Shown here: positions 14,827 through 44,659 of the stretch, piece by piece | Layout: every line of letters begins with the position of its first letter | How positions within the stretch are numbered: position 1 is the stretch's first letter | Assembly (NCBI GenBank): GCA_043814605.1 | Contig: JBDRJV010000037.1 | Location: 31,899 to 95,898, forward strand | Length of the DNA stretch: 64,000 nucleotides | DNA from: Candidatus Omnitrophota bacterium | GTDB lineage: Bacteria; Omnitrophota; Gorgyraeia; B26-G9 | Direction: 5' to 3' | The notes under the pieces: model-generated | Databases searched by the model: none | What the model saw: the letters and a program-made list of their open reading frames with translations, nothing else | What the model was told of the DNA's origin: nothing | Program-made: the position numbers and the translations under genes

Positions 14827-14832
14827 TAAAAA

Positions 14833-18968: not shown

Positions 18969-18987
18969 TTTTAACTGGGGTGGTCCA

Positions 18988-20817: not shown

Positions 20818-22284
20818 ATGAAAATTAAATTTGTGCATTCAGATTTACAGGCGTTGGGTATTGAATATCTTAGTGCAATACTTAAAAAAAATGGGCATAA
20901 TGTGGATTTAATAATTGACCCCATGTTTCCATTTTTGAAAGCAATTTTAAATCCTTTAAAAAAAATTCTTCAATTAAAAGAAAAATTATTAAGAAATATT
21001 TTAAGCAATACCCCAGATATAGTTGCTTTTTCAGTAACAATCCATAATTTTGAATGGGCATGTCAATTAGCAAATGAAATAAAAAAATATTCAAATGCTT
21101 TTATAGTTTTTGGCGGTATCCAAGCAACTTTATTGCCGGAAGTAATTTTTCAAAAAGTAAAAGCTGATTTTGTAATCAGGGGTGAAGCAGAATATGTATT
21201 TATGGAGTTGGTCCAAAGCTTAGAATCTGATAAAAAATGGCATAAAATTAAAAATTTATGTTTCCAGGATAAGGAGAAAATAATAATAAATCCTTTACGA
21301 GAGTTAATTAACAATTTAGATGAGTTGCCTTTTCCGGATAAGGATATTCTCCCCGGATGGTTTAATAAAAAGGCTTACAGGATTATTACAAGCCGTGGTT
21401 GTATAGGAGAATGCAGTTATTGTTGTGCGCCTATTTTAAAAGAATTTTATAAAGGGTTGGGAAGTAAGATTAGAAGGCGTTCGGTTGATAACGTAATTGA
21501 AGAATTGACGTTAGCTCCAGCAAAGTATAATATTAGGAAAGTATTTTTTGAAGATGATTTGTTCACTTTTGATAAAAAGTGGGTAAGAGAATTTACTAAA
21601 CAATATGCTAAAAAAGTCAATTTGCCCTGTCTTATTCATGCTACTCCCGAAACCTTAGATTTAGAGATGATTGAATTATTAAAGGAGATGAACTGTTCTT
21701 GTGTTGAAATAGGAGTGCAAAGTTTAAATCCAGAAATAAGACAAAATTTATTAAGTAGGTATTATTCTAATGGAAAAATAGTAGAAATTATTGAAACTTT
21801 GAAGCAAAAAGGGATAATTTGTATTTGTGATAATATTGTTGGATTGCCGCAGGAAAAATTATCGGATATAAAAGCTGCTATAAAATTTTATGCTAAACTA
21901 AAGCCAGGTAAGATAGAAGTTTTACGCCTTGAGTTCTATCCCCAGGCGTCAATTATCGAAATGAGTAATTTAGCTAAAAAGGATAAAGAAAGAATAAATA
22001 ATGGGGAATTATTTATTTCTAAAGGATCTAATTATAAAAAGGTCTCAAAAATGTTGCTGCTTATAGGCTTAAGTTATATATTACCAGCTAAATCAGTGAA
22101 TTTTTTATTAAGAAAACATTTATTTAATATTTTTCCTTTTTTTGATGATTTTAATCACGTGAATGAATTTATATATTACTTTTCTGCTTTTTTTAAAAAA
22201 AATAAAAAAATAATATTTATTTCCTATCGGAATGATTTACTTGATAAAATTAAGTATGTATTTAAAAATATATTAGAAAATTAA
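20818..22284 (+). CDS. B12-binding-domain radical SAM protein (paralog subfamily 'LGIEYLSA')
   Basis: Has the N-terminal LGIEYLSAILKKNGH B12-binding-like domain, ITSRGCIGECSYCCA (CxxxCxxC) and the C-terminal motif YILPAKSVNFLLRK shared with 35228, 36739 and 44660. Confidence 0.8.
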   Translation: MKIKFVHSDLQALGIEYLSAILKKNGHNVDLIIDPMFPFLKAILNPLKKILQLKEKLLRNILSNTPDIVAFSVTIHNFEWACQLANEIKKYSNAFIVFGGIQATLLPEVIFQKVKADFVIRGEAEYVFMELVQSLESDKKWHKIKNLCFQDKEKIIINPLRELINNLDELPFPDKDILPGWFNKKAYRIITSRGCIGECSYCCAPILKEFYKGLGSKIRRRSVDNVIEELTLAPAKYNIRKVFFEDDLFTFDKKWVREFTKQYAKKVNLPCLIHATPETLDLEMIELLKEMNCSCVEIGVQSLNPEIRQNLLSRYYSNGKIVEIIETLKQKGIICICDNIVGLPQEKLSDIKAAIKFYAKLKPGKIEVLRLEFYPQASIIEMSNLAKKDKERINNGELFISKGSNYKKVSKMLLLIGLSYILPAKSVNFLLRKHLFNIFPFFDDFNHVNEFIYYFSAFFKKNKKIIFISYRNDLLDKIKYVFKNILEN

Positions 22285-22286
22285 TT

Positions 22287-23339
22287 ATGAAATTAAAAAA
22301 AATTATAAGCCCTTTAAATGTAATTGCTAAAATTACTGAAGTTAGATTGTTTAACAAAATTAGATTATTAAATGTTAATTTTTCTGTAACGTCACGCTGT
22401 AATTTAAATTGCAAATATTGTTGGAGAGGAGAGATCAGCAAAAATAATAATCATAATTTTCCGGACGAAATGAAACTTGTACAAATAAAGAAGGCTTTCC
22501 ATAATTTAAGGGAGCTGTATGCAGAAGTGATTAATATTACGGGAGGTGAACCTTTAGTCCGGGAAGATATCTCAGAGATAATCAGGGCTGGACTCAAAGA
22601 TAACTTATGGGTTTCTTTGACGACAAATGGGGTTCTTTTGACACAAAGATTAAAAGAGATTGATGAAGTCAAGCTTCTAATTGTAAGTTTAGACGGGAAA
22701 AAGGAATCTAATGATAGTTTAAGGGGTGAAGGGACTTTTTTAAAAGTAATAAAAGGTATAGAGTTAAGTAAAAACCTAGGCGTACCGCTTATGCTTTCTT
22801 GTGTAATTTCAGCAAAAACTCAAAATGAAGATATTGATTTTCTTTTAAATCTAGCTAAATTTTACGAAATTTATTGTATATTCCATCCTGTAAACGATAG
22901 GGGCATTGTAAATGATAAATGGGAAGTTAATTCGAATATAAAAAAAGTTAAAACAGAGAAAAACGAATTAATTAATAAACTAAATTATTTAAAAAATCAT
23001 CAACTGATTAATAAATCTTGTGGGGGTAAATATTGGTGTGAATTGATGAAAGAATTTCAGGAAAAACAAGAAATACTTAAAAATAAACTGTGTTTTGGCG
23101 GGAGGCTATTTGTAAATATTGAATCAAATGGGGTTGTGACATCTTGCGGGTTAAGCCAAGATCCTTTATTAAGAGACAGGATATTTGATCAGGGGTTTTT
23201 AGAAAACTATCAGTTAGCAGTAAGGAGAATTAGCTGTAAGGGGTGTTTTTGTTATTCATATAAAATGATAAATGATATTTCTAAATTTAATTTGCGAACA
23301 ATTAAGAATTTTTTAATACAAGATAAATTCAAGTATTAG
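22287..23339 (+). CDS. Radical SAM / SPASM-domain protein
   Basis: SVTSRCNLNCKYCW (CxxxCxxC), followed by a C-terminal Cys-rich SPASM-like region (CGGKYWC...CFGG...CG...CKGCFC). Confidence 0.8.
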   Translation: MKLKKIISPLNVIAKITEVRLFNKIRLLNVNFSVTSRCNLNCKYCWRGEISKNNNHNFPDEMKLVQIKKAFHNLRELYAEVINITGGEPLVREDISEIIRAGLKDNLWVSLTTNGVLLTQRLKEIDEVKLLIVSLDGKKESNDSLRGEGTFLKVIKGIELSKNLGVPLMLSCVISAKTQNEDIDFLLNLAKFYEIYCIFHPVNDRGIVNDKWEVNSNIKKVKTEKNELINKLNYLKNHQLINKSCGGKYWCELMKEFQEKQEILKNKLCFGGRLFVNIESNGVVTSCGLSQDPLLRDRIFDQGFLENYQLAVRRISCKGCFCYSYKMINDISKFNLRTIKNFLIQDKFKY

Positions 23340-23387
23340 CTTTTATTTGCAAAAGTAATAAAATTTATTTTTAAGGAGATTTTAGCT

Positions 23388-24746
23388 GTGGTAAATAACG
23401 TGAATATCAAAAGAAAAACGCAGAGCCTATGTATTGTTTGTAAACAAAGAGTCCCGGCTGAAGTTTACAAGAAAGACGAAAAAATATTTTTAAAAAAAAT
23501 ATGTCCTGAACATGGAGATATGGAGGTTTTTTTAGGACGAGCGGATTATTATGAATCATTAGATGAGTTCTTTTGTCTTATCCGTACGAATAAAAATAAA
23601 CACATGCCGACTCTTGAGCTTATTGTTAATTTCGATTGTAATATGAATTGTCCGATTTGTTATTTAGGCCCTCAGCGGAAAGAACTAAGCAAATTCTCAC
23701 CGACTCTTAATGAATTAGAAGATTTTATAAAACAAACAAAGTATTATTCTTTTGTCATTTCCGGAGCAGAGGCAACATGCCGGGATGATTTACTGGAAAT
23801 AATTAAATTACTTAAAAAATATGGTAAGACAGTAAGTATTAATACAAATGCTTTAAAATTAGCAGATTATAAATATGCGAAAAAAATGAAAAAAGCTGGG
23901 ATTGACCGTGTTAATATACAGTTTTCCGGTTTTAATGAAAAAGCTGAGAAGATTTTTAGAGGAGAAAATTATATAGAGATTAGGATTCAAGCTATGGAAA
24001 ATCTAAATAAGCTAGGCATCTCTATGGGACTAAATACTCTAATTGCCGGAAGCTTAAATGAGAATGATATAATTAGGGTACTAGAATTTGGCTTAAAATA
24101 TAAATCACTGCGTATGATAAATTTTTCAACATTAATTTTTGTGGGTGAGACAATGGATTATCCTTTAAATTATTACCTAATGCCCGATGATTTAATGATG
24201 CTTGTTGAAAAACAAACAAAAGGGAAAATTAAAAGAGAAAATCTTTATATTTTTAAAAAACTTGAAATTGTTATTTCATCATTTTTAAATAAAGATACTT
24301 GTTTTTATCGTCATGCTTATTTGCTGATCAAAAAAGGAAAAAATTATTTCCCAATAGATAATTTTATAAATCTAAAAAAACTGGAACCATATTTAGAATG
24401 TTATAAAAATCTTTTTAAAAAAAATAAGTTTCTGGGTAAAACCTTTCTGATTGTAATGACTCCATATTTATTGATTATAAATTATAAAATTTTAAAAATT
24501 TTAAGTGAAGTTACAAGAATGATCATATCCTATTTTTTTAAAAGATGGCTTTTCTTGCAGTCTAGCGATATAGTTTATTTACAATTTTCAGCGGTATGTG
24601 ATTTGTACAAAATTGATTATGATTTATTTAAAAGCTGTCAGTGTAAAACTATTTTCTTTTTTGATCGAGAAAATAATAAATTCTTTAAAAAAAGTAAGCC
24701 CATAGAAGATCATTATTGGTTGTTATGGAGAGATCGTGATAATTAA
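23388..24746 (+). CDS. Zinc-ribbon-fused radical SAM enzyme (paralog 1 of 6)
   Basis: GTG start with AAGGAGA 8 nt upstream. N-terminal CIVC...CPEHG (Cys3His ribbon), CNMNCPIC (CxxxCxxC), and the motifs SGAEATCRDDL and INTNALKL. There is a C-terminal hydrophobic segment and a Cys pair. Confidence 0.8.
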   Translation: MVNNVNIKRKTQSLCIVCKQRVPAEVYKKDEKIFLKKICPEHGDMEVFLGRADYYESLDEFFCLIRTNKNKHMPTLELIVNFDCNMNCPICYLGPQRKELSKFSPTLNELEDFIKQTKYYSFVISGAEATCRDDLLEIIKLLKKYGKTVSINTNALKLADYKYAKKMKKAGIDRVNIQFSGFNEKAEKIFRGENYIEIRIQAMENLNKLGISMGLNTLIAGSLNENDIIRVLEFGLKYKSLRMINFSTLIFVGETMDYPLNYYLMPDDLMMLVEKQTKGKIKRENLYIFKKLEIVISSFLNKDTCFYRHAYLLIKKGKNYFPIDNFINLKKLEPYLECYKNLFKKNKFLGKTFLIVMTPYLLIINYKILKILSEVTRMIISYFFKRWLFLQSSDIVYLQFSAVCDLYKIDYDLFKSCQCKTIFFFDRENNKFFKKSKPIEDHYWLLWRDRDN

Positions 24747-24752
24747 AGTTAT

Positions 24753-26135
24753 TTGCGTAAAAAATATCAGGATAATATAATGAACGGACAAGAAGTAATA
24801 AGAAAAACAACAAGCTTTTGCCCAGAATGTAAAACCACAATACCGGCAGAAGTTATAAAAAAAGATGGAAAAATTTTCCTGTGCAAGTTATGTCCTGAGC
24901 ATAAGGCGCAGGATTATTTTTTGGGTGAAGCTAAATACCATGAATCTTTAGAAGATTTTTATTTTAAGATACGTAAGAATATTAATAAACCTATAGTAAG
25001 TGTAGAGTTAGTGGTTAATTTTAGCTGTAATATGAATTGTCCGGTATGTTTTTTAGGAGATAATTTTGATACCTTAAAAAATTTTGACCCAACGGTTAAT
25101 GAAATAGAATCTTTTATTAAAAAAACAAAGTATAAATCATTTGTAATTTCCGGGGCGGAAGCAACTTGCCGGGACGATTTATTCGAAATAATTAAAATTC
25201 TAAAAAAATACAGCAAGACAGTGGGGATAAATACAAACGGGTTAAAATTAGCTGAATTTTCATATGTGAAAAAACTTAAAGCTGCAGGTGTGGACCGTGT
25301 AAATCTTCAATTTTCCGGTTTTAATTCAGATGCAGAAAAATATCTCAGAGGAGAAGATTACATCAATCAAAAACTTAAAGCCTTGGAAAATCTCAACAAA
25401 TTAAATATTGCTGTGGGATTAAATGCCCTTATTGCCGGAAATTGTAATGAAGATCAAATCGGTAATATTATCGAAATGGTTTCTGCTTATAGGGTAATAA
25501 AAATGGTTAATTTTGGATCTATGGTTTTTACGGGACTAGCAAAAGATTATCCCAGAAAAAATTATATAATGCCAGATGATTTGTTGAGGTTTGCTCAAGA
25601 ACAAACAAAAAATAAAATTAAACGCCAAAGTGTATATATATTCAAAAAACTTGAAATTGTAATTGCATCTTTTTTTAATAAAGATACTTGTTTTTACCAT
25701 CATTTATATTTAATTGTAAAAAAGAAAAATAGTTATAAACCGATAGATAAATTTCTCAATCTAGAAAAAATTGAATCTGTTTTAGAGCAATATAAAAATA
25801 TATATGGAAGAAGTAGTTTTATGGCTAAAATATATTTAATTATGATTCTTCCTTACCTATTAATTATAAATTACAAAATAATTTTAATTCTGGGTGAGAT
25901 TTTTCAAATGTTTTTTTCTTACTTTTTTAAGAAAGCCAATTTTCTTAAACAGCGCAATATTATTTATTTACTATTTTTTGTTGAATGTGATGTGTTACGG
26001 ATTGATTATGACATATTTAATAAATGTCCGTTTAAATCAATTTTCTTTTTTGACAAAAGTAATAATGGGTTTCAGAAAAAAAGGGATCCCATAGAAAATC
26101 ATTATTGGTTTTTATGGAAAGATAAAAAGAATTAG
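24753..26135 (+). CDS. Zinc-ribbon-fused radical SAM enzyme (paralog 2 of 6)
   Basis: CPEC...CPEH, CNMNCPVC, SGAEATCRDDL. Similarity to paralog 1 is high along the whole length. Confidence 0.8.
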   Translation: MRKKYQDNIMNGQEVIRKTTSFCPECKTTIPAEVIKKDGKIFLCKLCPEHKAQDYFLGEAKYHESLEDFYFKIRKNINKPIVSVELVVNFSCNMNCPVCFLGDNFDTLKNFDPTVNEIESFIKKTKYKSFVISGAEATCRDDLFEIIKILKKYSKTVGINTNGLKLAEFSYVKKLKAAGVDRVNLQFSGFNSDAEKYLRGEDYINQKLKALENLNKLNIAVGLNALIAGNCNEDQIGNIIEMVSAYRVIKMVNFGSMVFTGLAKDYPRKNYIMPDDLLRFAQEQTKNKIKRQSVYIFKKLEIVIASFFNKDTCFYHHLYLIVKKKNSYKPIDKFLNLEKIESVLEQYKNIYGRSSFMAKIYLIMILPYLLIINYKIILILGEIFQMFFSYFFKKANFLKQRNIIYLLFFVECDVLRIDYDIFNKCPFKSIFFFDKSNNGFQKKRDPIENHYWFLWKDKKN

Positions 26136-26144
26136 GAATAGAAT

Positions 26145-27512
26145 ATGGAATTAAGAGTCATAAAAAGAAAAACAACAAGCTTGTGTCATGTCTGTAAACA
26201 AAAAGTCCCGGCGGAGGTTTTTAAGGAAAACAATAAGATTTTTTTACGTAAAATATGCCCGGAGCATGGGAATTTTGACGTTTTTTTAGGCCGGGCTCAA
26301 TTTTATGAGTCTTTAGACGATTATTTATTTTTGATTTATCCCGCTAAAAAAATACATAGTGAAGCCGCAGAATTAATGATCAGTTTTGATTGTAATATGC
26401 ATTGTCCGATTTGTTACTTGAAAGACGAGCGTAAATTTTTAAAAAAGTTTGATCCTTCGCTGTGTGAATTAGAAGAATTTATTAAGAATACCCAGCATCA
26501 TTATTTTGTTATTTCTGGGGCTGAGCCGACTTGTCGTGATGATTTATGTAAAATAATTAAAATACTCAAAAAATACAAAAAAACTGTCAGTTTGAATACA
26601 AATGCTCTAAAATTAGCAGATTATAGATATGTGACTAGTCTTAAGAAAGCGGGGGTTGATAAAGTTAATGTGCAGTTTTCTGGGTTAGATCCAAAAGCGG
26701 AATATTTTTTAAGAGGCAGTAATTATATAGATCTGAAATTAAAAGCGTTAGAGAATTTAGAAAAACTTAATATTTCTATAGGATTAAATACACTTATTGC
26801 GCGCACTCATAATGAAGATCAGGTGGGCAAAGTTATAACTCAAGCATTACAATATAATTCTTTGAGGATGATATGTTTTTCAACCATGGTTTTTATTGGT
26901 CATACAGAAAATTATGTTCTGGATACATATTTAGCTCCAGATGATTTACTAAGATTAGCAGAGGAACAGACACAAGGAAAAATTAAGAGCGAAAGCGTAT
27001 ATATTTTTAAAAAACTTATAATCGTTATATTATCTTTTTTTAATAAAAATACTTGTTTTTATGATTTTGTTTTTTTAATTATTAGGAAAAAAAAATCTTA
27101 TATTCCTATAGACAAATTGATGAATCTTAAAAAAACTGAGCGATGTTTAGATAAATATAAAAATATATATAAAAATAATCAAATTTTAGCCAAGGTTTAT
27201 TTAATATTTATTAGTCCGTATTTATTTTTAATCAATTATAAGATTTTGAAAATAGCAGGAAAACTTATTCGCATGATTTTTTCAAAATTTTTTAAAAAAT
27301 TAGGGATTTTTTATCCTAGTGATTTAATCCTGATCCAATTCTTTACAGATTGTGATCTGTACCGTATTGATTATGATATATTTAGAAAATGTCCGTTTAA
27401 AGCAGTTTTCTTTTTTGATAAAAATAAAGAAGGGTTTAAAAAAAGTGATCACCCGATAGAAGATAATTACTGGTTTTTATGGAATAATAAAAATGATTTA
27501 GGATTAATTTGA
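26145..27512 (+). CDS. Zinc-ribbon-fused radical SAM enzyme (paralog 3 of 6)
   Basis: CHVC...CPEHG, CNMHCPIC, SGAEPTCRDDL. Confidence 0.8.
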   Translation: MELRVIKRKTTSLCHVCKQKVPAEVFKENNKIFLRKICPEHGNFDVFLGRAQFYESLDDYLFLIYPAKKIHSEAAELMISFDCNMHCPICYLKDERKFLKKFDPSLCELEEFIKNTQHHYFVISGAEPTCRDDLCKIIKILKKYKKTVSLNTNALKLADYRYVTSLKKAGVDKVNVQFSGLDPKAEYFLRGSNYIDLKLKALENLEKLNISIGLNTLIARTHNEDQVGKVITQALQYNSLRMICFSTMVFIGHTENYVLDTYLAPDDLLRLAEEQTQGKIKSESVYIFKKLIIVILSFFNKNTCFYDFVFLIIRKKKSYIPIDKLMNLKKTERCLDKYKNIYKNNQILAKVYLIFISPYLFLINYKILKIAGKLIRMIFSKFFKKLGIFYPSDLILIQFFTDCDLYRIDYDIFRKCPFKAVFFFDKNKEGFKKSDHPIEDNYWFLWNNKNDLGLI

Positions 27513-28855: not shown

Positions 28856-28859
28856 GAAT

Positions 28860-30458
28860 ATGCAACTAAAAAATGATATTAAGAAAATAGTATTAGTCCG
28901 TGCTCCGAAACATATGTGGCCATGGGTTAATGAATCAGACAATTTTCTATTACCATTAGGTTTACCGATTCTTGCTGCTGCAATAAGAAATCAATTTAAA
29001 AATAAAATTGAAGTAAAAATTATTGATTGTCCTCCGTTAAAGATTGGATGGGAAAGTTTAGAACAGATATTAAAGGAAGAGAAAGCGGATGTTATCGGAG
29101 CGGGAGAGGAAGCATTATATCATCATGAGGCCATAAGACTTTTTGAAATATCTAAAAGAATTAACCCTAATGTGATCAATATCGCCGGCGGACATTATTT
29201 TTCCTGGATGGTTAAAGATAGCTTGAAAAATCATCCCATTGATATTATTGTTAAATTTGAAGGAGAGCAGACAATTGTAGATTTGATTGATGCGCTAAAA
29301 CAAAGGCGGGATTTAAACTCTGTCCCGGGAATAGCTTTTAAGAAAAACAGCCAAATTATTGAAACTCAAGCTCGGCCAATTATTCAAAATCTTGATGAGC
29401 TGCCTATCCCTGCCTATGATTTAATGCCCATGCGTAAATATGGTGATAGAGCCATTTTTTGGCCGGAAAGTGCCACGATTGAAGGCAGCCGGGGGTGTAT
29501 AGATACTTGCAGTTATTGCTCATTATGGACATTTTGGGGGAAACACAATAACTCGGGATGCCGAGAAGATAAAATTAAGGCAACGCCTTTTTTTCGGCAA
29601 AAAAGTATTGATCATGTAATGCAGGAAATAGAGATTCTTTATGAAAAATATAATCGCCGATTGCTTTTATGGGCAGATCCGACTTTTAATGTTAATCCGG
29701 AGTGGACAGATAAACTTTGTGATGAAATATTAAGGAGAAATTACAAGTTAGAACATTGGGTATTTTTGCGTACTGATTATGCTTTAAGAGATGAAAAAAC
29801 CGGACTCTTAGCAAAAATGGTGCGTGCTGGTATTGTACATCCACTTTTTGGTGTAGAAAGATCTCATGCTGATGAGTGGAATAAGTTAGGAAAACATGGA
29901 TATAAAAGAGATGAGATTAAAGAGTTATTTCATATAATGAGAGATAAATATCCGCAAATTTTCCGGCAGGCAACTTTTATTACATGTTTACCTTTTGATG
30001 ATGAAAAATCAATGATGAATTTAGCTAAATATGCGGTTGAAATTGATTGTGATTTTCCGGTTTTGCATCCAGCGACGCCTGTACCGGGAACATACCTTTA
30101 TGAAGAGGTGATCAAAAATAATTTTCTTGAAGAAAAAGATCTTAAAGAAGCTTATTGGGAGTATCCATTACTAAAGAATATTCATGGATTATCCAGAACA
30201 GAGCAGGCTCGTTTAAATAGAAAAGCACAATTATATTGCATCCTAATGAATTTTAAAACTATGTTCAAAGGTATTTTCTCAAAATATCCGAGTAAAAGAT
30301 TTCGTTACCGTGAAGTATTAAGAGTTTTAATTTTAAAATCGTTTCAAATGTTTTCTTTGAAGGTTAAAGAATTATTTAATAAACCAACCGATTTAGAAAA
30401 GAAAATTCCTCAGTCGCTATTTTTTATTATGGAAAAGCCTAAGTGGTATGATAAATAG
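28860..30458 (+). CDS. B12-binding-domain radical SAM protein
   Basis: N-terminal B12-binding-like Rossmann region, then EGSRGCIDTCSYCS (CxxxCxxC). Confidence 0.75.
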   Translation: MQLKNDIKKIVLVRAPKHMWPWVNESDNFLLPLGLPILAAAIRNQFKNKIEVKIIDCPPLKIGWESLEQILKEEKADVIGAGEEALYHHEAIRLFEISKRINPNVINIAGGHYFSWMVKDSLKNHPIDIIVKFEGEQTIVDLIDALKQRRDLNSVPGIAFKKNSQIIETQARPIIQNLDELPIPAYDLMPMRKYGDRAIFWPESATIEGSRGCIDTCSYCSLWTFWGKHNNSGCREDKIKATPFFRQKSIDHVMQEIEILYEKYNRRLLLWADPTFNVNPEWTDKLCDEILRRNYKLEHWVFLRTDYALRDEKTGLLAKMVRAGIVHPLFGVERSHADEWNKLGKHGYKRDEIKELFHIMRDKYPQIFRQATFITCLPFDDEKSMMNLAKYAVEIDCDFPVLHPATPVPGTYLYEEVIKNNFLEEKDLKEAYWEYPLLKNIHGLSRTEQARLNRKAQLYCILMNFKTMFKGIFSKYPSKRFRYREVLRVLILKSFQMFSLKVKELFNKPTDLEKKIPQSLFFIMEKPKWYDK

Positions 30459-31851
30459 AAATTATTGCAAAAACGGGAACAATAAAAATAATATTATTCG
30501 CAAGACTACAAGCAGATGTGTTGTTTGTTCACAACCAGTTGATGCATCGCTTATTAAAGTTTTGGATAAAGTATTTTTAGAAAAATTTTGTCCGGTACAT
30601 GGAAGTTTTTGTCTGCTGATTTCTGAACATGCAGATGAATATATGGATTTAGAAAAATTTTATTTTAATGTTAGCGAAAATAATCTTAATTTTTGGGCCT
30701 TAGAAGTAGATTTAACATTTGAATGTAATATGGAATGTCCAATTTGTGCTTGGGGTGAGGATGTGGGAATAGGCAAGACTAATAATCAGCCTGTAATGGA
30801 TGAAATAAAGCGGCTGTTAATTAAAACTAAAGCAAAAGTTATTAGATTCTCAGGAGGAGAGCCTACTTGTAGGAATGATTTGTTTGATATTATTAAAATG
30901 GCAAAAAAGTTAAATAAAAAAATTATTTTAAATACAAATGGTTTGAAATTAGCTAATTTTGAATATGTAAAAAAGTTAAAACAGAGCGGAGTTGATTGTG
31001 TTAATTTAACTTTTGATGGTTTTAATATAGAATTTGAAAGAAACATGAGAGGAAATAATTATTTAGAACCGAAACTTAAGGCGCTAGAAAATTTAAATAG
31101 TCTTTGTTTACCAACAGGATTAAATATTAGGGTTGTCCCAGAGGGGAATGAAGCTGAAATACCTAAAATTATTGATTTGGCTAAAAACAATAAAAATATT
31201 AAACTGCTTAGTTTCGGAACAGTTGGCTATTTGGGACATGCACAGAAGCGGAACATTAAAAAATACTTAATGCCAGATCAATTAGTAGATATTGTTGTTG
31301 AGAATGCCTGTGGTTTAATTTCTCGAGAAAGTATTCGATTATTTCAAAAGTTTTTTATTACGGTTAATTCTTTTTTTACGCAGCGTTGGTGTTTCTATGA
31401 TTCTGCAGCAATTATTTTAGTGCGGGATAAAGATAGTTTGGTTACATTGGATAAATATATTGATCTGCATGATTTAGAAAAGATTTTAGATAATTACGCG
31501 GATAAGTATAAACATAATAAAATATTAGCTAAAATATGTTTATTATTGGGTGGGATTAAAGTTTTTTTTAAGATAAAAAATTTAAGAGTAATAAAAGAAA
31601 TTGTTTTCAGAGGAATTAGTTTTTTTATGCAGAAAAAAAAATACTTAAACTCACAATTATTAATTTATGTAAGTATTAATACTAGTTGTGATCGGTATAA
31701 AATGGATGATATGATTGCTAAAAATTGTATTTTTTCAATGGCCTTTAAAGATGAAAACAATAAACTAAGCATTAAAGGCAGCGGTGCTTTTATTTGTGAT
31801 AAAATTTCTAGTTCAAGTAATAAGAATCAGTTAAAATTTATGGGCATTTAA
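30448..31851 (+). CDS. Zinc-ribbon-fused radical SAM enzyme (paralog 5 of 6, divergent)
   Basis: CVVC...CPVHG, CNMECPIC, SGGEPTCRNDL, NTNGLKL. Confidence 0.75.
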   Translation: MINRNYCKNGNNKNNIIRKTTSRCVVCSQPVDASLIKVLDKVFLEKFCPVHGSFCLLISEHADEYMDLEKFYFNVSENNLNFWALEVDLTFECNMECPICAWGEDVGIGKTNNQPVMDEIKRLLIKTKAKVIRFSGGEPTCRNDLFDIIKMAKKLNKKIILNTNGLKLANFEYVKKLKQSGVDCVNLTFDGFNIEFERNMRGNNYLEPKLKALENLNSLCLPTGLNIRVVPEGNEAEIPKIIDLAKNNKNIKLLSFGTVGYLGHAQKRNIKKYLMPDQLVDIVVENACGLISRESIRLFQKFFITVNSFFTQRWCFYDSAAIILVRDKDSLVTLDKYIDLHDLEKILDNYADKYKHNKILAKICLLLGGIKVFFKIKNLRVIKEIVFRGISFFMQKKKYLNSQLLIYVSINTSCDRYKMDDMIAKNCIFSMAFKDENNKLSIKGSGAFICDKISSSSNKNQLKFMGI

Positions 31852-31865
31852 AAAGAGGAAAACTA

Positions 31866-32933
31866 ATGTTAAAAACGATTCAACATTCATTTCCGCTAAT
31901 CGGTAATGCTGAGAAAAATGCTCTCAATAAGGTGTTAAATACGAGCTTTCTGGCTCAAGGCAGAGAAGTTGAGAAGTTTGAAAAAGGTGTATCCGAATAT
32001 GTTGGATGTTTTCATGCCCAAGCTGTTAATTCGGGTACAGCAGCTTTGCATTTGGCGCTATTAGCTTTAGACATTAAAGCTGGGGATGAGGTAATTATAC
32101 CTAACTATGTGTGTCGGTCAGTATTAAACGCTGTGCAATATGCTAGAGCACGGCCGGTCTTATGTGATGTGGATAAACGCACATTTAACATATTACCAGC
32201 AGCTCTTAAGTCAAAAATTAATAAAAGAGCAAAAGCTGTAATTGTAGCGCATATGTTTGGCTTTCCGGCTCAGATGGATGAATTAAAAAAAATAAGAATC
32301 CCGATTATTGAAGATTGCGCACAAAGTATCGGAGCTGATTTTAAAGGAAAACTTGTGGGTAGTTTTGGAGATTTATCTATTTTTTCATTTGAAGGGACAA
32401 AAACAATTACTACCGGAGAAGGAGGTATGATTTTAACTAATTCCCAGAAATTATCAAATAAAATTACTAGATTTAAAGAGCCTTATGAGAAAGATCAAAT
32501 GCCTAAATATACATTTCGAATGAGTGATTTACAGGCAGCCATTGGCAGAGTTCAGTTAAAAAAATTACCCGGTTTTATTTTTAGAAGAAGAAAAATTGCA
32601 CAAATTTATAGAAAAGCATTTAAAAATTTAAAGGTTGATTTACCATTTGAAAATGATAATATGATTCATTCTTATCATCGATTTATAATTAGTCTAAAAA
32701 AGAAAAATCAAATAAATAAAGTCATTAATTATTGTCAAAAAAAAAGGGTAATGGTGAAAAGGCCGATTAAACATTATGCGCTTAACCAATATTTAGGCAT
32801 ATCAAATAAATTATTTCCGAATACGGATTTTATAATGAAACATTGTATTTCGATCCCCATATATCCAGCTTTAAGCGAAGCAGAAATTATGAGAATAATT
32901 AAAGTAGTTAAAGACGGGGTAAGTCAGTTGTGA
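31866..32933 (+). CDS. DegT/DnrJ/EryC1/StrS-family PLP-dependent sugar aminotransferase
   Basis: EDCAQSIGADFKGKLVGSFGDLSIFSF...K...GEGGMIL and DLQAAIGRVQLKKL. Confidence 0.8.
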   Translation: MLKTIQHSFPLIGNAEKNALNKVLNTSFLAQGREVEKFEKGVSEYVGCFHAQAVNSGTAALHLALLALDIKAGDEVIIPNYVCRSVLNAVQYARARPVLCDVDKRTFNILPAALKSKINKRAKAVIVAHMFGFPAQMDELKKIRIPIIEDCAQSIGADFKGKLVGSFGDLSIFSFEGTKTITTGEGGMILTNSQKLSNKITRFKEPYEKDQMPKYTFRMSDLQAAIGRVQLKKLPGFIFRRRKIAQIYRKAFKNLKVDLPFENDNMIHSYHRFIISLKKKNQINKVINYCQKKRVMVKRPIKHYALNQYLGISNKLFPNTDFIMKHCISIPIYPALSEAEIMRIIKVVKDGVSQL

Positions 32934-33895
32934 ATATAAAATATGATTTTAGAAATGAACGGGAAAAGAATTTTCCTTTGATGCTTAATTTGGAAATAAC
33001 TAATATCTGTAATTATCAATGTATACATTGTCCTTATCCAAGTATTTCTCAAAGAAAAGATTATACCCCTAAGTTTATGTCCTGGGAAATTTTTAAGAAA
33101 ATAGCTGATCAAACTGCTAATTATCCTGAGACAATTTTTAGATTTGTTTGTGATGGGGAACCAATGATGCACCCAGATTTTTTAAGAATGGTTGAATATG
33201 TTAAAAACTTAAAAATCAGTCCGGTTTGTTTTACTACTAACGGATATTTTTTAACCCCGGAGGTTTCTCGTAAAATAGTTGAATTTGGTTGTGACCTTAT
33301 CGAAATAAGTTTAGATGCTTTTTCAGAGTATAGTTATAATAAAATCCGCCGGGGTGGAAATTATCATAAAGTTATTGATAACCTTAATTATCTTATCCAG
33401 TCAAAAAATGAACTATCTGCAAAGAGTTCAAAGATTATGGTTAGTATTATAGATCAGCCTTTAGTTAAAAATGAGATAACTACATTTAAGAATTTTTGGC
33501 AGGATAAGGTAGATTATGTGATTACAAGAGTATTAACGAGTGCGGGCGGGTTTATTAAGGAATCTATTCGAGATAATAAAACTGATGTGGAAATACGATG
33601 GCCTTGTCCTTTATTATGGCGGAGATTGTTTATTAATGTAGATGGTTGGGCTGAATATTGTGTGGATGATTGGTTAGATCAATCGATTTTAGGTGATGTA
33701 AATAAAGAGAGTATTGCCTCTATCTGGGGAGGCCAAAAATATCGAGATTTAAGAAAAAATCACATAAATAATAATTTTAGTTACAATGAAAAGTGTGCAC
33801 AATGTCAGGATTGGAGAGCCAGAACCTGGGAAAATGATTATTTTCATGCAATAGAGAGGATTTTTAATTTAAATTTTAAAAATGAGAATTATTGA
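32930..33895 (+). CDS. Radical SAM / SPASM-domain protein
   Basis: EITNICNYQCIHCP (CxxxCxxC). A downstream Cys-rich region (CPLLW...C...CAQCQ) is consistent with SPASM/twitch clusters. Confidence 0.75.
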   Translation: MNIKYDFRNEREKNFPLMLNLEITNICNYQCIHCPYPSISQRKDYTPKFMSWEIFKKIADQTANYPETIFRFVCDGEPMMHPDFLRMVEYVKNLKISPVCFTTNGYFLTPEVSRKIVEFGCDLIEISLDAFSEYSYNKIRRGGNYHKVIDNLNYLIQSKNELSAKSSKIMVSIIDQPLVKNEITTFKNFWQDKVDYVITRVLTSAGGFIKESIRDNKTDVEIRWPCPLLWRRLFINVDGWAEYCVDDWLDQSILGDVNKESIASIWGGQKYRDLRKNHINNNFSYNEKCAQCQDWRARTWENDYFHAIERIFNLNFKNENY

Positions 33896-35222
33896 TAGTA
33901 CAAAAAGCTTATGTCCGGTTTGTTTACAATGGATTGATTCTGCGGTAGTTACAAAAGATGACCATAAAGTATATTTAGAAAAAAAATGTCCGGAACATAA
34001 AGGAAGTTTGGTGTTTCTTTCTCCGGATGCAGAAGGATTTATTGTTTTAAGAGATTTCTACTTTCAAACTCATCAAAAAATATTTCCCCAAACTCGCTAC
34101 CTTTGTTTTTTAACCCCTAAGTGCAACCTTTCTTGTCCAATTTGTTTTTTGGATTCAGGAATGCAGGATAAAGAAGATATTAATAGGAAAGACTTAGTTA
34201 GGTTTTTGAATAATGGCAAAAAAGAAATAATTATTTTTGGAGCAGAGCCAACTTGCCGTAAAGATATTTTTGAAATAATCAGTTTTCTTAAAAAAAAGCA
34301 GCATTCGGTGAGTCTATACACTAATGGGATAAAATTAGTTGATTATAAATATGCGGAGAAGATTAAGCAAACAAAAGTAAACAAAATATATTTTCAATTT
34401 GATGGTTTTGATGATTCTATTTATGAGGTTTTACGTAAAGTAAAGCTCAAAGATCTCAAGATTAAGGCATTAGATAATTTAAAAAAAATTAATATGCCTG
34501 TGGTTTTAGATGTTGCCTTAGCCAGAGATGTTAATATTAACCAAATGGGATCTATTTTTGAATACGCTCTGAATAACAATTTTATTAAAACAATAAACTA
34601 TATCGCTTATGTGCGTTCTGGTGGAGGAGGAAAATATCTAGCGAATCAAGCAATTATGCCGGATGAATTAATAGACGAAATAAGTAAAGCTACAAAAATG
34701 AGAATAAACAGAGTTAATATGAGAATTTTTCAGAAGTTATTATATGTGTATATGTCAACTTTAAAGAAAAGAACATGTTTTTATATTAAATATTTTTGGG
34801 TTTTCCGCACAGAAAATAACCAGTATTTAACATTTGATCAAATAATTAATTTTGATATGCTAGAAAAAATATTAAATAAGTATGTATTATTAGTAAAAAA
34901 ACAAAATCAGATAATTGCTAGTATGTATTTAGTACTGAAACTTCCTTTTTTACTTTTTTCTATAAAAAACAATAAAGCTTTTTTTCAAATGCTGAAAATG
35001 ATTTTTTCGCATGTTTTTAATCGGGGAGATTATTCTTGCGTTAGGGGTGAGTTTTTACAACTAATATTTACTACTGCCTGTGATGTGGATAAGGCAGATT
35101 TGAAGATTTCGCAGCGTTGTCATGTGGGCATGATGTATAAAAATAAACAAGAAAAATTAGAAGTTTTTAATGAAAATGGTATGTATTTATTAAATCAGGA
35201 AATTCAGAAGAAAGGTGTTTAG
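33882..35222 (+). CDS. Zinc-ribbon-fused radical SAM enzyme (paralog 6 of 6, divergent)
   Basis: CPVC...CPEHKG, CNLSCPIC, FGAEPTCRKDI, YTNGIKL. Confidence 0.75.
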   Translation: MRIIDSTKSLCPVCLQWIDSAVVTKDDHKVYLEKKCPEHKGSLVFLSPDAEGFIVLRDFYFQTHQKIFPQTRYLCFLTPKCNLSCPICFLDSGMQDKEDINRKDLVRFLNNGKKEIIIFGAEPTCRKDIFEIISFLKKKQHSVSLYTNGIKLVDYKYAEKIKQTKVNKIYFQFDGFDDSIYEVLRKVKLKDLKIKALDNLKKINMPVVLDVALARDVNINQMGSIFEYALNNNFIKTINYIAYVRSGGGGKYLANQAIMPDELIDEISKATKMRINRVNMRIFQKLLYVYMSTLKKRTCFYIKYFWVFRTENNQYLTFDQIINFDMLEKILNKYVLLVKKQNQIIASMYLVLKLPFLLFSIKNNKAFFQMLKMIFSHVFNRGDYSCVRGEFLQLIFTTACDVDKADLKISQRCHVGMMYKNKQEKLEVFNENGMYLLNQEIQKKGV

Positions 35223-35227
35223 CTAAA

Positions 35228-36715
35228 ATGCGGATTGGATTTATTTATTCTGAAATGGAAACACTGGGTATCCAATATTTATCTAGTTTTTTAAAACAAA
35301 ATGGATATACAACCAAGCTTTTTTTTGATCCGCAATTATTTGCAGATACAATTTCTCAGAGCAAGTCTTTAAACAAGGTCTTTGACTATAAAAAACAATT
35401 ATTCAAGCAGATAGAAGCATTTAAGCCGGATTTTTTAGCATTTTCTGTTTTAAGTACTAACTACCATTGGGCATTTAAATTTACAAAAGAAATAAAAGCA
35501 AGGTTGAACATTCCTATTGTTTGGGGGGGGGTTCATCCTACTTTAGACCCGGAATCTGTTTTAAAACTTGATTGTGTGGATTATATAATAGCGGGAGAAG
35601 CAGAAGAAGCATTGCTTGAGTTTGTTAATAAATTTAAGAATAAGAATTCTCTGAGTAAATTGAGAAATGTATATACAAAGGTTAATGGAAAAATTATAAA
35701 AAATTTATTAAGGCCATTAATAAATAATTTAGATCAATTACCTTTTCCGGATAAAGATATATTTTATGACATTATGCCATATTTAAAAGATCATTATACA
35801 ATTGTAACGGGAAGAGGATGTCCGCATGCGTGTACTTTTTGTTGCAATCACAGTTTAAGGAAAATAAATGAGCAAAATAGTGGGAAAAATAATTTTTTAA
35901 GACGTAGATCAGCAGACAATGTGGTTACTGAATTAAAGCAAGCTAAAGAAAAATATCATATCAAAGATGTTTTTTTTGAGGATAGTACTTTTACTTACGA
36001 TAAAAAGTGGTTGAAGGAATTTGCAATCTTGTACCATGATTCAATTAATTTGAATTGCTTTTGCTGGGTTCATCCGGCTGAAATTGATGAGGAAGTAGTA
36101 GGATACTTAAGATTAATGAATTGCCGTGCTGTTGAAATGGGAGTAGAAAGTATAAACTCAGAGATTAGGGCCAAATGGTTAGGGCGTAACTATCCCAATG
36201 AGAAGATTGAAAACGCATTAAAATTATTAAAGAAAAATAAGATTTTTTGCATCACAGATAATATTATCGGATTACCCGAAGAAGAAATAAAAGATTTAGA
36301 AAATTTAGTAGATTTTTATAATAAATTACGGCCTGAAAAAATTTATATATTTGAACTAAGAATGTTTCCAAATACTCAGATGCATGAATTGTATCATGAT
36401 TATCAAGACAGCTTTAAAGAAAACAATGATGGATTGTCCCCGTTTACGTTATCTTCTTCACAGAACAAAATGGCGAAAAAAATTATTGTTTTAATTTTAG
36501 CGATACAATTTTTGCCTAAAAAAGTAATCAATTTTTTATTAAAAAATAAGTTATACAAGTTTTTCCCCGCTATAAATTTATATAATCTTTTAGAAATTAC
36601 GCCTTTTTTCTTGAATTTATTCAAAAGAGAAAAACTTTGGTTTCCCATTCGCGGAACAAGAAAAAGGTATTTATTTTTTGCTAAAAAGATGATTATAAAT
36701 TTTATTAAACGTTAA
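35228..36715 (+). CDS. B12-binding-domain radical SAM protein (paralog subfamily 'LGIEYLSA')
   Basis: LGIQYLSSFLKQNGY, TGRGCPHACTFCCN, C-terminal IQFLPKKVINFLLKNKLY. Confidence 0.8.
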   Translation: MRIGFIYSEMETLGIQYLSSFLKQNGYTTKLFFDPQLFADTISQSKSLNKVFDYKKQLFKQIEAFKPDFLAFSVLSTNYHWAFKFTKEIKARLNIPIVWGGVHPTLDPESVLKLDCVDYIIAGEAEEALLEFVNKFKNKNSLSKLRNVYTKVNGKIIKNLLRPLINNLDQLPFPDKDIFYDIMPYLKDHYTIVTGRGCPHACTFCCNHSLRKINEQNSGKNNFLRRRSADNVVTELKQAKEKYHIKDVFFEDSTFTYDKKWLKEFAILYHDSINLNCFCWVHPAEIDEEVVGYLRLMNCRAVEMGVESINSEIRAKWLGRNYPNEKIENALKLLKKNKIFCITDNIIGLPEEEIKDLENLVDFYNKLRPEKIYIFELRMFPNTQMHELYHDYQDSFKENNDGLSPFTLSSSQNKMAKKIIVLILAIQFLPKKVINFLLKNKLYKFFPAINLYNLLEITPFFLNLFKREKLWFPIRGTRKRYLFFAKKMIINFIKR

Positions 36716-38199: not shown

Positions 38200-38918
38200 T
38201 GGTAGTTGATGAAATATCTTTAATTGTCCCTGTTTATAATGAGCAGGAATTAATTCAAGAAACAGTAGAAATATTTTTAACAGATTTATCAAATATCTGT
38301 AAAAATTATGAATTGATTATAGTTGATGATGCGAGCACAGATGAGACAGCAGAGATTTTAAAGAATCTGAAATCTAAATATCAACACCGGTTAATAGTTA
38401 TTACAAATGAGAAAAATATAGGTGGTGGCCGGAGTTTAATTAAGGGCTTTCACGCGGCTAGATATTCGCTTGTGGCAACAAACTTTGCGGATAGGCCATT
38501 TAATTTATTAGAACTTAAAAATATATTACCAAAATTTTTAAAGAATATTGATTTTATCGTTGTGGTCCGTAAAAATAGGTCCGCTAACAGTGTTTACCGT
38601 AAAATTACTTCTCTGATTAATTATTATTTAATTCGGCTGCTTTTTAATATAAAAGTTAAGGATTTCCAATTTGTCCAGATTTATAAAAGAGAAATATTAC
38701 AATCGATAAGCGTAGATTCCCACAGAACTTTTGTGCCCCCGGAAATTATTATTAGGCTGCTTTTGAATAATTACATTATGGATGAATATGAAGCCGATTT
38801 TTATCCGAGGACAAAAGGGATGGCTAAGTGCGGAAATCCGCGGATAATTTTAAGGGCAATTTATGATATGTTTTCTTTCTGGGTAAATTTAAATTTATTG
38901 AAAAAATATAGGGATTAA
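38199..38918 (+). CDS. GT2 polyprenyl-phosphate glycosyltransferase (ArnC / DPM1-like)
   Basis: The first ATG after the upstream stop is at 38199 (TAATG overlap). SLIVPVYNEQELIQ...ELIIVDDASTDETAEIL and the following region match DPM1/ArnC-type GT2 enzymes, which charge polyprenyl-phosphate with a sugar. Confidence 0.65.
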   Translation: MVVDEISLIVPVYNEQELIQETVEIFLTDLSNICKNYELIIVDDASTDETAEILKNLKSKYQHRLIVITNEKNIGGGRSLIKGFHAARYSLVATNFADRPFNLLELKNILPKFLKNIDFIVVVRKNRSANSVYRKITSLINYYLIRLLFNIKVKDFQFVQIYKREILQSISVDSHRTFVPPEIIIRLLLNNYIMDEYEADFYPRTKGMAKCGNPRIILRAIYDMFSFWVNLNLLKKYRD

Positions 38919-41591: not shown

Positions 41592-41972
41592 TAAAAAAAT
41601 AATATCGTATAAAGCGATACTTATTAATTTTACCGCTAAAATTTTTCTACTATTGGTTAGAGGACTAATTATATTACTGTTGTTTCCAAAGAGAAAGATA
41701 GTATTGTAGATATTACTGGTTTATAAAATGATTCGAAAAAAATAACTAATCGATTAAGCTTAATAAAATGTAATTTTAATTATTTTAAAGGACTAACTAT
41801 TAGTTGATTGATAAGGTTGTTACGAATACCGAGACTAATATAATAAGCGATTTAAATTAATCGCCATGTCCTGTAGAAGGTATAATTAGTTTACGTAATT
41901 ATAATAATGTTGTGGTGAATTTTCAAGAAAATATTTTTCAATTAATATATACAATTCGGCGAGAGGATCTAG

Positions 41973-44644: not shown

Positions 44645-44659
44645 AAGGAATTAATTTAA

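Follow-up and report, generated by a model that had tools for sequence, protein, structure and literature searches.

A divergent branch of the Tes/GDGT-MAS radical SAM family in a probable envelope-glycan locus of Omnitrophota

Does a bacterial locus in which radical S-adenosylmethionine (SAM) proteins of Tes-like architecture lie among B12-binding radical SAM proteins follow the logic of archaeal tetraether lipid synthesis, or does it put the same protein folds to another use? The question is raised by a 64,000-nucleotide stretch of DNA from a Candidatus Omnitrophota bacterium (contig JBDRJV010000037.1 of assembly GCA_043814605.1, positions 31,899 to 95,898 of the forward strand), which is called the window in the following and has a G+C content of about 29%. 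In a first-pass annotation, six radical SAM paralogs with a fused zinc ribbon (here Z1 to Z6) were described at positions 20818-36715 as alternating with B12-binding radical SAM proteins next to enzymes for polyprenyl-phosphate-linked substrates. The six paralogs and their interleaving with the B12-binding class were confirmed by Pfam. The two classes are indeed intermixed, but they stand in blocks and do not strictly alternate, the core gene order being B12 - radical SAM - Z1 Z2 Z3 Z4 - B12 - Z5 - DegT - SPASM radical SAM - Z6 - B12 - B12. Enzymes of polyprenyl-phosphate chemistry do adjoin, namely four PMT_2 proteins, a Wzy_C protein, a small family 2 glycosyltransferase (GT2) with ArnC as its best match and a YfhO-like membrane protein. 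As laid out below, the Z clade has a known fold whose cofactor set is altered and which was expanded and redeployed in a glycan context. The locus itself is read here, at roughly even confidence, as an Omnitrophota-specific envelope-glycan island in which a polyprenyl-phosphate-linked (possibly nucleotide-linked) amino sugar would be tailored by radical enzymes and transferred to the envelope by glycosyltransferases of the GT-C type.

All six Z proteins (Z1, 23388-24746; Z2, 24753-26135; Z3, 26145-27512; Z4, 27509-28855; Z5, 30448-31851; Z6, 33882-35222; these and all further features listed here lie on the plus strand) combine the zinc ribbon Zn_ribbon_HMPTM (PF23545, E 1e-12 to 3e-16) with the Radical_SAM domain (PF04055). 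Z2, Z3 and Z4 are 58, 58 and 60% identical to Z1, and pairwise identity among these four is 56-60%; the divergent Z5 stands at about 36-39% and Z6, the most divergent, at about 31-35%. Since identities are only of this order, the paralogs are not an artefact of assembly. A sequence search linked Z1 to the archaeal tetraether synthase GDGT-MAS (Tes; PDB 7TOL) with E = 3.5e-40 over residues 6-340. On the NCBIfam Tes model NF045702, Z1 to Z6 scored 123-159 bits, about a third of the equivalog cutoff of 450 bits, and on the TrsS model NF045646 they scored 135-153 bits. When Z1 was modelled with AlphaFold2 from an alignment with 33 homologs (mean pLDDT 91.4), the model matched 7TOM and 7TOL over the full length with template modelling (TM) scores of 0.80 and 0.74, and all other PDB matches, the weaker ones to DesII and BlsE among them, covered the radical SAM core only at TM scores of 0.41 or less. 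Judged by sequence, profile and predicted fold, the Z proteins are true homologs of Tes/GDGT-MAS, so that the homology first proposed from the letters alone stood up to searching. By the same sequence measures they are not Tes orthologs. The Pfam name HMPTM goes back to an old annotation of the archaeal protein MJ0619 as a pterin methylase; the identity of MJ0619 as a "class D methylase" was rejected, as the activity was irreproducible in the structural paper (Nature, 2022), in which the protein was reassigned as GDGT-MAS.

GDGT-MAS (MJ0619) carries four metal sites, which are a rubredoxin-like iron site (C9X2C12X20C33X2H36), an N-terminal cluster [Fe4S4]N (C73, C77, C80 and a His), the SAM cluster and a C-terminal cluster [Fe4S4]C with the labile ligand Met439. 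Common to the Z proteins and to Tes (7TOL/7TOM, NF045702, IPR034474) are the rubredoxin-like CX2C...CX2H ribbon and the radical SAM TIM-barrel core with its CX3CX2C motif. In Z1 the ribbon residues are C15, C18, C39 and H42 and the radical SAM motif is formed by C84, C88 and C91 (CNMxCPxC), followed by the C-terminal cysteines C305, C404 and C417. Among 114 full-length Z-type sequences, the ribbon cysteines are conserved in 97-99% and the histidine in 88%, and C305, C404 and C417 in 96, 74 and 95%, respectively. C305 corresponds to the HCG-type cysteine of Tes and C417 to C455, with a helical subdomain of similar length in between, and two aligned cysteines of [Fe4S4]C are thereby kept in Z, the ligands in 7TOL having been assigned by alignment. 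There are also differences. Both the alignment to 7TOL and a family alignment of 33 sequences show a deletion in Z that takes in the entire [Fe4S4]N segment, which has the motif CPxDCGxCxxH and precedes the radical SAM motif by about 25 residues. Tyr459, strictly conserved among 1,000 homologues of GDGT-MAS from archaea and part of the CVIHY motif of Tes, is replaced by T, S or K in Z1 to Z6. For Met439 and the PFC cysteine there is no counterpart in Z, and the clade-specific C404 lies three residues from the position of Met439. The typical Tes C-terminus (CMHFMDPYNF..DR..RCVIHY..PDGR.IPFC) thus reads ..CD.Y.ID.D....C.. in Z. With about 450 amino acids against 495-526 in Tes/GDGT-MAS, the Z proteins retain three of the four GDGT-MAS domains and are devoid of the N-terminal cluster domain; from these alignments, they probably carry two Fe-S clusters and a mononuclear site.

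The loss of these features is a property of a clade. In a neighbour-joining tree of the family, the Z proteins group together and are separate from the other clades. Among 49 family members collected from genomes, no sequence from Omnitrophota or Undinarchaeota has either the double CX3CX2C or the PFC motif, whereas among the 31 non-Z relatives in the same set the N-terminal cluster motif is found in 28 and PFC in 30. One of the 31, from Aminicenantes, has neither the N-terminal cluster motif nor PFC; an Aminicenantes sequence (from locus L077; L001 to L088 and P0078 are labels of compared loci and of a compared protein) is placed at the base of the Z clade. Both motifs also occur in most of the more distant matches of a word search. 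TrsS (seleno)proteins (NF045646) and the bacterial members of IPR034474 have the same domain order as Z, and Z scores as high on the TrsS profile as on the Tes profile; unlike Z, however, the TrsS-type clade of Clostridia and Desulfobacterota keeps the double CX3CX2C and PFC, and its members have neither B12-binding radical SAM nor DegT neighbours. Two metagenome-assembled genomes (MAGs) of Undinarchaeota (L024 and L025, about 9971-11374) code for a Z-type homolog of 29% identity without the [Fe4S4]N motif, which also stands without B12-binding radical SAM or DegT neighbours. A profile search over 1.84 billion representatives returned 920 matches below 1e-30, and a single CX3CX2C was found in 149 of the best 150, so that the Z clade comprises at least 149 clusters at 50% identity, mostly from Omnitrophota. 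An earlier impression that the family is extremely rare, based on about 10 close relatives from a word-indexed search, was dropped after this exhaustive search had given hundreds. Motif losses, tree position and profile-search counts together make the Z proteins a distinct and sizeable branch of the family. In two cases, two Z domains are joined in one reading frame (L015, 9989-12745, 918 amino acids; P0078, 950 amino acids), and these fusions suggest that Z paralogs act together or as pairs.

A further trait of the clade concerns its C-terminal part. In each Z paralog, a single 19-residue window exceeds a Kyte-Doolittle mean of 1.6, at about residues 343-372. The maximum 19-residue hydrophobicity in the C-terminal 40% of the protein averaged 1.77 in 17 Z-type sequences as compared to 0.94 in 31 further members of the family, among them archaeal Tes-type proteins. 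GDGT-MAS has a second lipid pocket made of amphipathic helices, and the stretch between C305 and C404, which has a similar length and contains the hydrophobic helix of Z, would be the counterpart of this helical region. Hydrophobicity of membrane grade points to a membrane-embedded substrate or to a monotopic membrane anchor. A similar hydrophobic helix is found near the C-terminus of one subfamily of the B12-binding proteins (B12_2/4/5/8; in B12_2 the segment lies at residue 413).

The pairing of Z genes with genes for B12-binding radical SAM proteins is conserved in other genomes. In the Omnitrophota MAG GCA_022013205.1 the same order is found, namely a 278-amino acid protein, YfhO-like protein, radical SAM, B12, B12, Z, Z, Z, ..., DegT, SPASM radical SAM, Z, B12, B12, GT2, DegT. 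Collinear orders were recovered in L008 and L009, L008 being collinear from WbqC to B12_5 with differing copy numbers of the Z subtypes, and variants occur in L004, L005, L007, L010-L012, L014-L017 and L021. A triad of DegT, a Twitch/SPASM radical SAM and a Z protein, to which Z6 belongs in the window, is present in L003, L008-L012 and L014-L016. For a quantitative comparison, matches of hidden Markov models were counted within 10 kb on either side in Z-type loci longer than 7 kb (n=18, of which 16 are bacterial and two from Undinarchaeota; among the bacterial ones L001 is the contig of L009 and L006 is near-identical to L005). Two to six Z genes were counted in 16 of the 18 loci, one to five B12-binding radical SAM genes in 15 and one to three DegT genes in 13. 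In contrast, a single B12-binding radical SAM gene was found in one of 57 Tes- or TrsS-type loci and DegT in none. Because the collinear arrangement recurs in Omnitrophota and the count separates the Z-type loci, the pairing of Z with B12-binding proteins is not due to chance, and the counts define Z, B12-binding radical SAM and DegT as a conserved functional unit. The same figure of one in 57 means that "Tes next to Grs" is no genomic rule in archaea which this locus could mirror.

Steady partners of the Z clade are the BtrN-like radical SAM, DegT, the ArnC-like GT2, the YfhO-like GT-C protein and WbqC. With two to six tandem paralogs per locus and a setting of amino-sugar and undecaprenyl-phosphate glycosylation, the Z loci differ from the ether-lipid context of Tes. 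WbqC was found in L004, L005, L008, L010 and L021, orthologs of the 278-amino acid protein upstream of the YfhO-like gene in L008, L009, L010 and L021, the YfhO-like gene itself in synteny in L005, L008, L009, L010 and L021, the radical SAM gene at 22287 in L008 and L009, and GT2_b in L004, L005, L009, L010, L017 and L021. AsnB-like amidotransferases occur in some related loci. MiaB-like proteins (UPF0004 plus radical SAM) were seen among the Z and B12 genes in L007, L011, L012, L014, L015 and L016 and constitute a fourth class of cluster-assisted radical SAM enzymes in this type of locus. In the literature searched (Omnitrophota radical SAM; B12-binding radical SAM in polysaccharide or undecaprenyl clusters), no description of this Z clade or locus type was found, and bacterial Tes homologs figured there solely as candidates for the making of membrane-spanning lipids.

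In total, 20 of the 52 open reading frames (ORFs) of the window are radical SAM genes by Pfam, consisting of the six Z genes, nine genes for proteins with both a B12-binding and a Radical_SAM domain (PF02310 and PF04055) and five others (starts 2511, 22287, 32930, 41973 and 46178). The nine B12-binding proteins start at 10787, 20818, 28860, 35228, 36739, 40167, 43235, 44660 and 47388 (B12_1 to B12_9). Three of them lie within 20818-36715, namely B12_2 (20818-22284), B12_3 (28860-30458) and B12_4 (35228-36715, directly downstream of Z6, a conserved placement); the other six, among them the syntenic B12_5 (36739-38199), lie outside. Of the nine, B12_2/4/5/8 form a subfamily with 34-41% identity, and the remaining five are singletons. 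None of the nine reached an NCBIfam cutoff. The best partial matches were HpnJ, BchE, a ladderane-associated B12 radical SAM family, ApyD and PhpK (for B12_2, HpnJ with 115 bits against a cutoff of 578; for B12_3, BchE with 165 against 481); the highest example was HpnJ with 193 against 578 bits, and HpnJ is not a methylase. Sequence matches in the PDB were weak and mixed (OxsB, TsrM, AprD4, MgmA, CysS and TokK; E 1e-5 to 1e-14), with AprD4 as the best one for B12_6. PDB entry 9CCB is the methyl-coenzyme M reductase glutamine methylase MgmA and not a lipid enzyme.

The domain architecture is common to the B12-binding proteins of the window, to class B radical SAM enzymes of known structure (TokK, CysS, MgmA, TsrM and OxsB) and to AprD4, an aminoglycoside diol dehydratase. 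A model of B12_3 (pLDDT 84.8) had AprD4 as its best fold match (TM 0.66/0.77), with TsrM, MgmA, OxsB, TokK and CysS near it and all six in a range of TM 0.56-0.66; as the scores are nearly equal, methylases and non-methylases are not separated and the fold search gives no functional assignment. B12_3 is 82% identical to its ortholog in L008, and across Omnitrophota its family numbers over 100 clusters at a level of 50% identity or higher, some members being labelled Elusimicrobia and Patescibacteria; compared to the Z proteins, it is more strongly conserved (50-82% identity) and more widely spread in Omnitrophota. In L085 a relative of B12_3 follows a Glycos_transf_4 gene (WecA/MraY-type), with a family 4 glycosyltransferase (GT4) nearby and then two peptidase U32 genes, and in L088 (Elusimicrobia) a relative lies interspersed among PMT_2 GT-C genes and three further B12-binding radical SAM genes. 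From these contexts, the link of B12-binding radical SAM enzymes to polyprenyl-phosphate glycosylation extends beyond the locus described here.

The archaeal GDGT ring synthases GrsA/B and the GDGT methylase Hgm are B12-binding radical SAM proteins, and in this respect the literature bore out the comparison drawn in the first-pass annotation. GrsA/B share the B12-binding Rossmann-like domain and the radical SAM core with the nine proteins of the window, and their AlphaFold models were described with a C-terminal helix for substrate binding, to which the hydrophobic C-terminal helix of B12_2/4/5/8 is a likeness. In contrast to Grs and Hgm, the neighbours in the window are sugar enzymes and a bona fide Tes is missing, as no Tes ortholog was found in the 64 kb with NCBIfam. 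No Grs-named family appeared among the NCBIfam matches listed for the B12-binding proteins (the best 25 or fewer per protein, with E up to 0.001 or 1e-15). A firm grouping with characterised C-methyltransferases (GenK, Fom3, CysS, TokK, PhpK and HpnR) was looked for as well and did not emerge, with cutoffs unreached, PDB matches weak and folds unseparated. Thus, neither "Grs-like" nor "C-methyltransferase only" is established for the B12-binding proteins.

What the Z and B12-binding enzymes might act on is suggested by the genes around them. Genes for envelope glycans in the island include four PMT_2, three DegT, three GT2 and one GT4 as well as WbqC, a polysaccharide deacetylase and Wzy_C. 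Immediately upstream of the core lie a WbqC-family protein (17362-18063; PF08889, E 1.7e-75), the 278-amino acid protein (18132-18968), which is signal-anchored by an N-terminal hydrophobic segment and gave no match in Pfam and NCBIfam scans, and a YfhO-like membrane protein of 618 amino acids with about 10 transmembrane segments (18949-20805), a putative GT-C enzyme whose Omnitrophota homologs carry PF09586 or a YfhO-family name. YfhO and ArnT/PMT_2 proteins are GT-C enzymes that work on the outer side of the membrane, with polyprenyl-phosphate monosaccharides as donors. Between B12_2 and Z1 stands a radical SAM protein of 350 amino acids (22287-23339), whose core is of a MoaA/NirJ-like type and whose C-terminus is rich in cysteine. 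Downstream of B12_5 lie GT2_b (38154-38918), a small GT2 and putative polyprenyl-phosphate sugar synthase, and DegT_c (38925-40139; Pfam E 2.8e-125), a PseC/ArnB-like UDP-4-amino-sugar aminotransferase (NCBIfam PseC with 369 bits against a cutoff of 423, ArnB with 360 bits). ArnC, the best match of GT2_b, is the undecaprenyl-phosphate aminoarabinose transferase.

Within the core, the DegT/PseC/LegC-like sugar aminotransferase DegT_b (31866-32933; PseC 250 and LegC 232 bits) overlaps a small radical SAM protein (32930-33895; Pfam Radical_SAM plus SPASM), for which BtrN was the best PDB sequence match (E 3e-10, 43 bits) over residues 15-136, which is the N-terminal core. The protein has exactly four C-terminal cysteines, C226, C244, C289 and C292, spaced C-x17-C-x44-C-x2-C, near the spacing of the auxiliary-cluster ligands of BtrN, which we take to be C169, C188, C232 and C235. 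In the biosynthesis of butirosin (2-deoxystreptamine), BtrN oxidises an alcohol of an aminocyclitol, which is then aminated by the DegT-family protein BtrS. As in the BtrN/BtrS pair, a small radical SAM gene goes with a DegT-family gene, which it adjoins and overlaps here; as a difference, the C-terminus of the 32930 protein is called SPASM by Pfam and the window has no 2-deoxy-scyllo-inosose (2-DOI) synthase. By analogy, the protein is a putative anaerobic sugar-alcohol dehydrogenase that would give a ketone to DegT_b. The gene set also resembles three-component extracytoplasmic glycosylation, which consists of a GT2 (ArnC/GtrB/CsbB), a flippase and a GT-C enzyme (ArnT/YfhO); GT2_b, the ArnB/PseC-like DegT, the YfhO-like protein and four PMT_2 proteins are likewise found here. 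We know of no three-component undecaprenyl-phosphate glycosylation system that contains radical SAM enzymes, still less 20 of them.

Taken in sequence, the envelope-glycan reading would run as follows. The DegT aminotransferases would make an amino sugar, with DegT_b fed by the BtrN-like protein at 32930, which would oxidise a sugar alcohol to the ketone without oxygen. The ArnC-like GT2_b would then load the sugar onto polyprenyl phosphate. On the cytoplasmic side of the membrane, this lipid-linked sugar might be tailored at unactivated carbons by the Z set and the B12-binding set. The Z enzymes would hold the polyprenyl tail in their hydrophobic C-terminal subdomain, and each paralog would abstract hydrogen from a different position or a different sugar; their C-terminal cluster may serve as an electron acceptor in an oxidation or epimerisation or as a radical trap for bond formation. 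The B12-binding enzymes would most likely methylate or rearrange the sugar. Finally, the finished sugar would be flipped, and the YfhO-like protein (18949) and the PMT_2 GT-C enzymes would attach it to an acceptor in the envelope.

Several points weigh against this scheme. Substrate, stage of action and every chemical step are read from genomic context, next to the directly observed homology, fold, motif losses, hydrophobicity and synteny. The sole characterised enzyme of this fold, GDGT-MAS, works on lipid tails and not on sugars, and the hydrophobic helix fits a membrane-lipid substrate equally well as a polyprenyl carrier. With 75 bits against a cutoff of 529, GT2_b matches ArnC weakly. No flippase of the GtrA/GtcA or Wzx type was found among the Pfam-scanned ORFs of the window, a set that leaves out one ORF of 234 amino acids (60954-61658), and among the related loci a Polysacc_synt-like ORF was seen in L017 only. 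The radical SAM enzymes could also act on nucleotide sugars prior to lipid loading. As to cofactors, joining C305, C404 and C417 in one C-terminal cluster is an assignment based on alignment, and cobalamin binding by the B12 domains of the window is predicted from the domain; AprD4 has the same domain and is not known to use cobalamin.

The first alternative keeps the chemistry of Tes on lipids. The Z proteins would couple alkyl or isoprenoid tails by a C(sp3)-C(sp3) bond, giving a (glyco)lipid that spans the membrane or is cross-linked, or else a polyprenyl carrier in dimerised form, and the B12-binding enzymes would tailor the hydrocarbon like GrsA/B and Hgm, which belong to the same B12-binding radical SAM class. 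The full-length GDGT-MAS fold of the Z1 model speaks for it, as do the kept position of the C-terminal cluster, which is the trap of the substrate radical in GDGT-MAS, and the C305-C404 stretch, which is similar in length to what would be the lipid-pocket region and more hydrophobic. The top NCBIfam matches of several B12-binding proteins (HpnJ, HpnR and the ladderane-associated family) also lie in this direction, far under the cutoffs. However, Z is devoid of [Fe4S4]N, Tyr459, Met439 and the PFC cysteine, it scores at about a third of the Tes cutoff, and B12-binding radical SAM genes are near Tes-type loci in only one of 57 cases. Six paralogs per locus are hard to fit with one tail-to-tail coupling. 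Among the ORFs with an annotation, in the window as in the syntenic loci, no genes for fatty acids, ether lipids or isoprenoids were recognised, and the partners are DegT, the BtrN-like radical SAM, GT2, YfhO and WbqC. A lipid-coupling role of this kind is therefore considered unlikely. Of the Tes plus GrsA/B logic proposed at the outset, the homology and fold to Tes hold; the defining Tes features are missing, the proteins form a separate clade and the pairing is not seen with Tes-type genes beyond that single locus. For the target proposed there, a lipid-linked glycan or a membrane-spanning glycolipid, radical tailoring of the former is favoured, and the lack of recognised lipid-synthesis genes among the annotated ORFs speaks against the latter.

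An intermediate alternative would combine both chemistries. The Z clade might keep the cluster-assisted two-radical coupling of Tes and direct it to polyprenyl-phosphate-linked sugars or glycolipids, each paralog forming a different C-C (or C-S) bond, and together with the B12-binding enzymes this would yield an envelope glycolipid or glycan that is cross-linked, branched or carbocyclic. We give this proposal a small chance. If it were true, the coupled product would have no known counterpart and would parallel, in a bacterium, the tetraether, calditol and ring chemistry of archaea.

Another alternative is a cluster for an aminoglycoside- or aminocyclitol-type metabolite, a diffusible or surface-attached pseudo-oligosaccharide. 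The BtrN-like protein and DegT would give a diamino cyclitol or sugar, and the B12-binding enzymes would serve as methylases like GenK and GenD1 or as a dehydratase like AprD4. BtrN as the best PDB match of the 32930 protein, AprD4, which leads both the fold matches of B12_3 and the sequence matches of B12_6, the three DegT aminotransferases and the presence of DesII and BlsE among the weaker fold matches of Z1 are in line with such a product. On the other hand, neither a sugar-phosphate cyclase (2-DOI synthase) nor a resistance or export gene was recognised in the window by Pfam. The block is set amid seven polytopic GT-C-like proteins and Wzy_C, directly upstream of the division and cell wall (dcw) cluster, and its arrangement is kept across many Omnitrophota species in the manner of a housekeeping envelope function. 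Overall, such a metabolite appears quite improbable. A pathway for ribosomally synthesised and post-translationally modified peptides or for protein modification (proteusin-like, with C-methylation by B12-binding enzymes and SPASM maturases, and with the glycosyltransferases as unrelated neighbours) is very improbable. Partial matches of B12-binding proteins to ApyD and rSAM_ocin_1 and of the small radical SAM proteins to SPASM peptide maturases, all far under cutoff, speak for it. Against it, no plausible precursor ORF but only AT-rich noise was found in the gaps of 41.5-49.2 kb, the peptidase and transporter genes typical of such pathways were not seen, and the synteny with DegT, GT2, WbqC and YfhO is tight, with frames that overlap or abut.

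The remaining genes of the island agree in orientation. All ORFs of at least 120 amino acids except one are on the plus strand, and they are tightly packed with few intergenic gaps. The upstream part (837-17362) was delineated by Pfam, hydrophobicity and sequence. It contains the four PMT_2 (ArnT-like GT-C) membrane glycosyltransferases (starts 837, 4119, 5561 and 15776, all above the Pfam cutoff), a SPASM radical SAM (2511), a methyltransferase (3569), DegT_a (7050), a protein with 10 transmembrane segments (8189-9676), the GT4 (9678), B12_1 (10787), GT2_a (12250), a DUF362 protein (13140-14252) and the polysaccharide deacetylase (14833). Several further polytopic membrane proteins of the island, found by hydrophobicity scan, are without annotation. 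The DUF362 protein has a Tat (twin-arginine translocation)-like motif at its N-terminus (MKKFTRREFLQKGIGLSTAVV) and is kept together with GT2_a and a 193-amino acid protein in L003 and L012. In the segment 10787-15675, B12_1 (best match HpnJ with 152 bits, far under cutoff), GT2_a and the polysaccharide deacetylase are in proximity, and a matching neighbourhood in L003 has a YdjC-family gene. These genes recall the logic of HpnI, HpnK and HpnJ, in which glycosyl transfer and deacetylation are followed by a radical SAM ring contraction to a cyclitol. The listed TTG start of 8189-9676 and the listed GTG start of 38154-38918 give overlaps of 94 and 46 nt, respectively, with the genes before them, and the true starts are probably further downstream.

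Downstream of DegT_c follows a radical SAM block (40167-48833; Pfam, NCBIfam and sequences) with B12_6 (40167), an AmmeMemoRadiSam-type radical SAM (41973-43166), B12_7 (43235), B12_8 (44660), a 329-amino acid radical SAM (46178) and B12_9 (47388). The AmmeMemoRadiSam-type protein scored 231 bits against a cutoff of 220, the family match begins at residue 46, and the N-terminus has a twin-arginine-like signal (MSISRRNFLKNSLKFCAGVGLCIL). Export of a radical SAM enzyme by the Tat route would be unusual, and the window has neither an AMMECR1 nor a Memo partner. The island ends with GT2_c, the Wzy_C protein (O-antigen ligase/polymerase-like) and a protein with 11 transmembrane segments (49120-53491). 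Directly downstream, the dcw cluster starts with mraZ, mraW, an ftsL-like gene, ftsI, murE and murF (54531-60939), and these genes mark the organism as a bacterium.

For the protein family, these observations change how a database match can be read. To our knowledge, no enzyme with this fold other than GDGT-MAS/Tes has been characterised, and bacterial homologs are routinely taken as markers of membrane-spanning lipids. Since the Z clade has the fold without one of the clusters and without the conserved catalytic-site residues, and since it is wired to glycan genes, matches named "Tes homolog" in bacterial MAGs are no evidence of a capacity to make tetraethers. The locus offers a defined set of enzymes, the triad of DegT, BtrN-like radical SAM and Z together with the GT2, which bears on how a Tes fold works without [Fe4S4]N. 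Omnitrophota are an uncultured phylum whose members are often host-associated, and a radical chemistry on lipid-linked sugars, so far unexplored, may exist in these bacteria.

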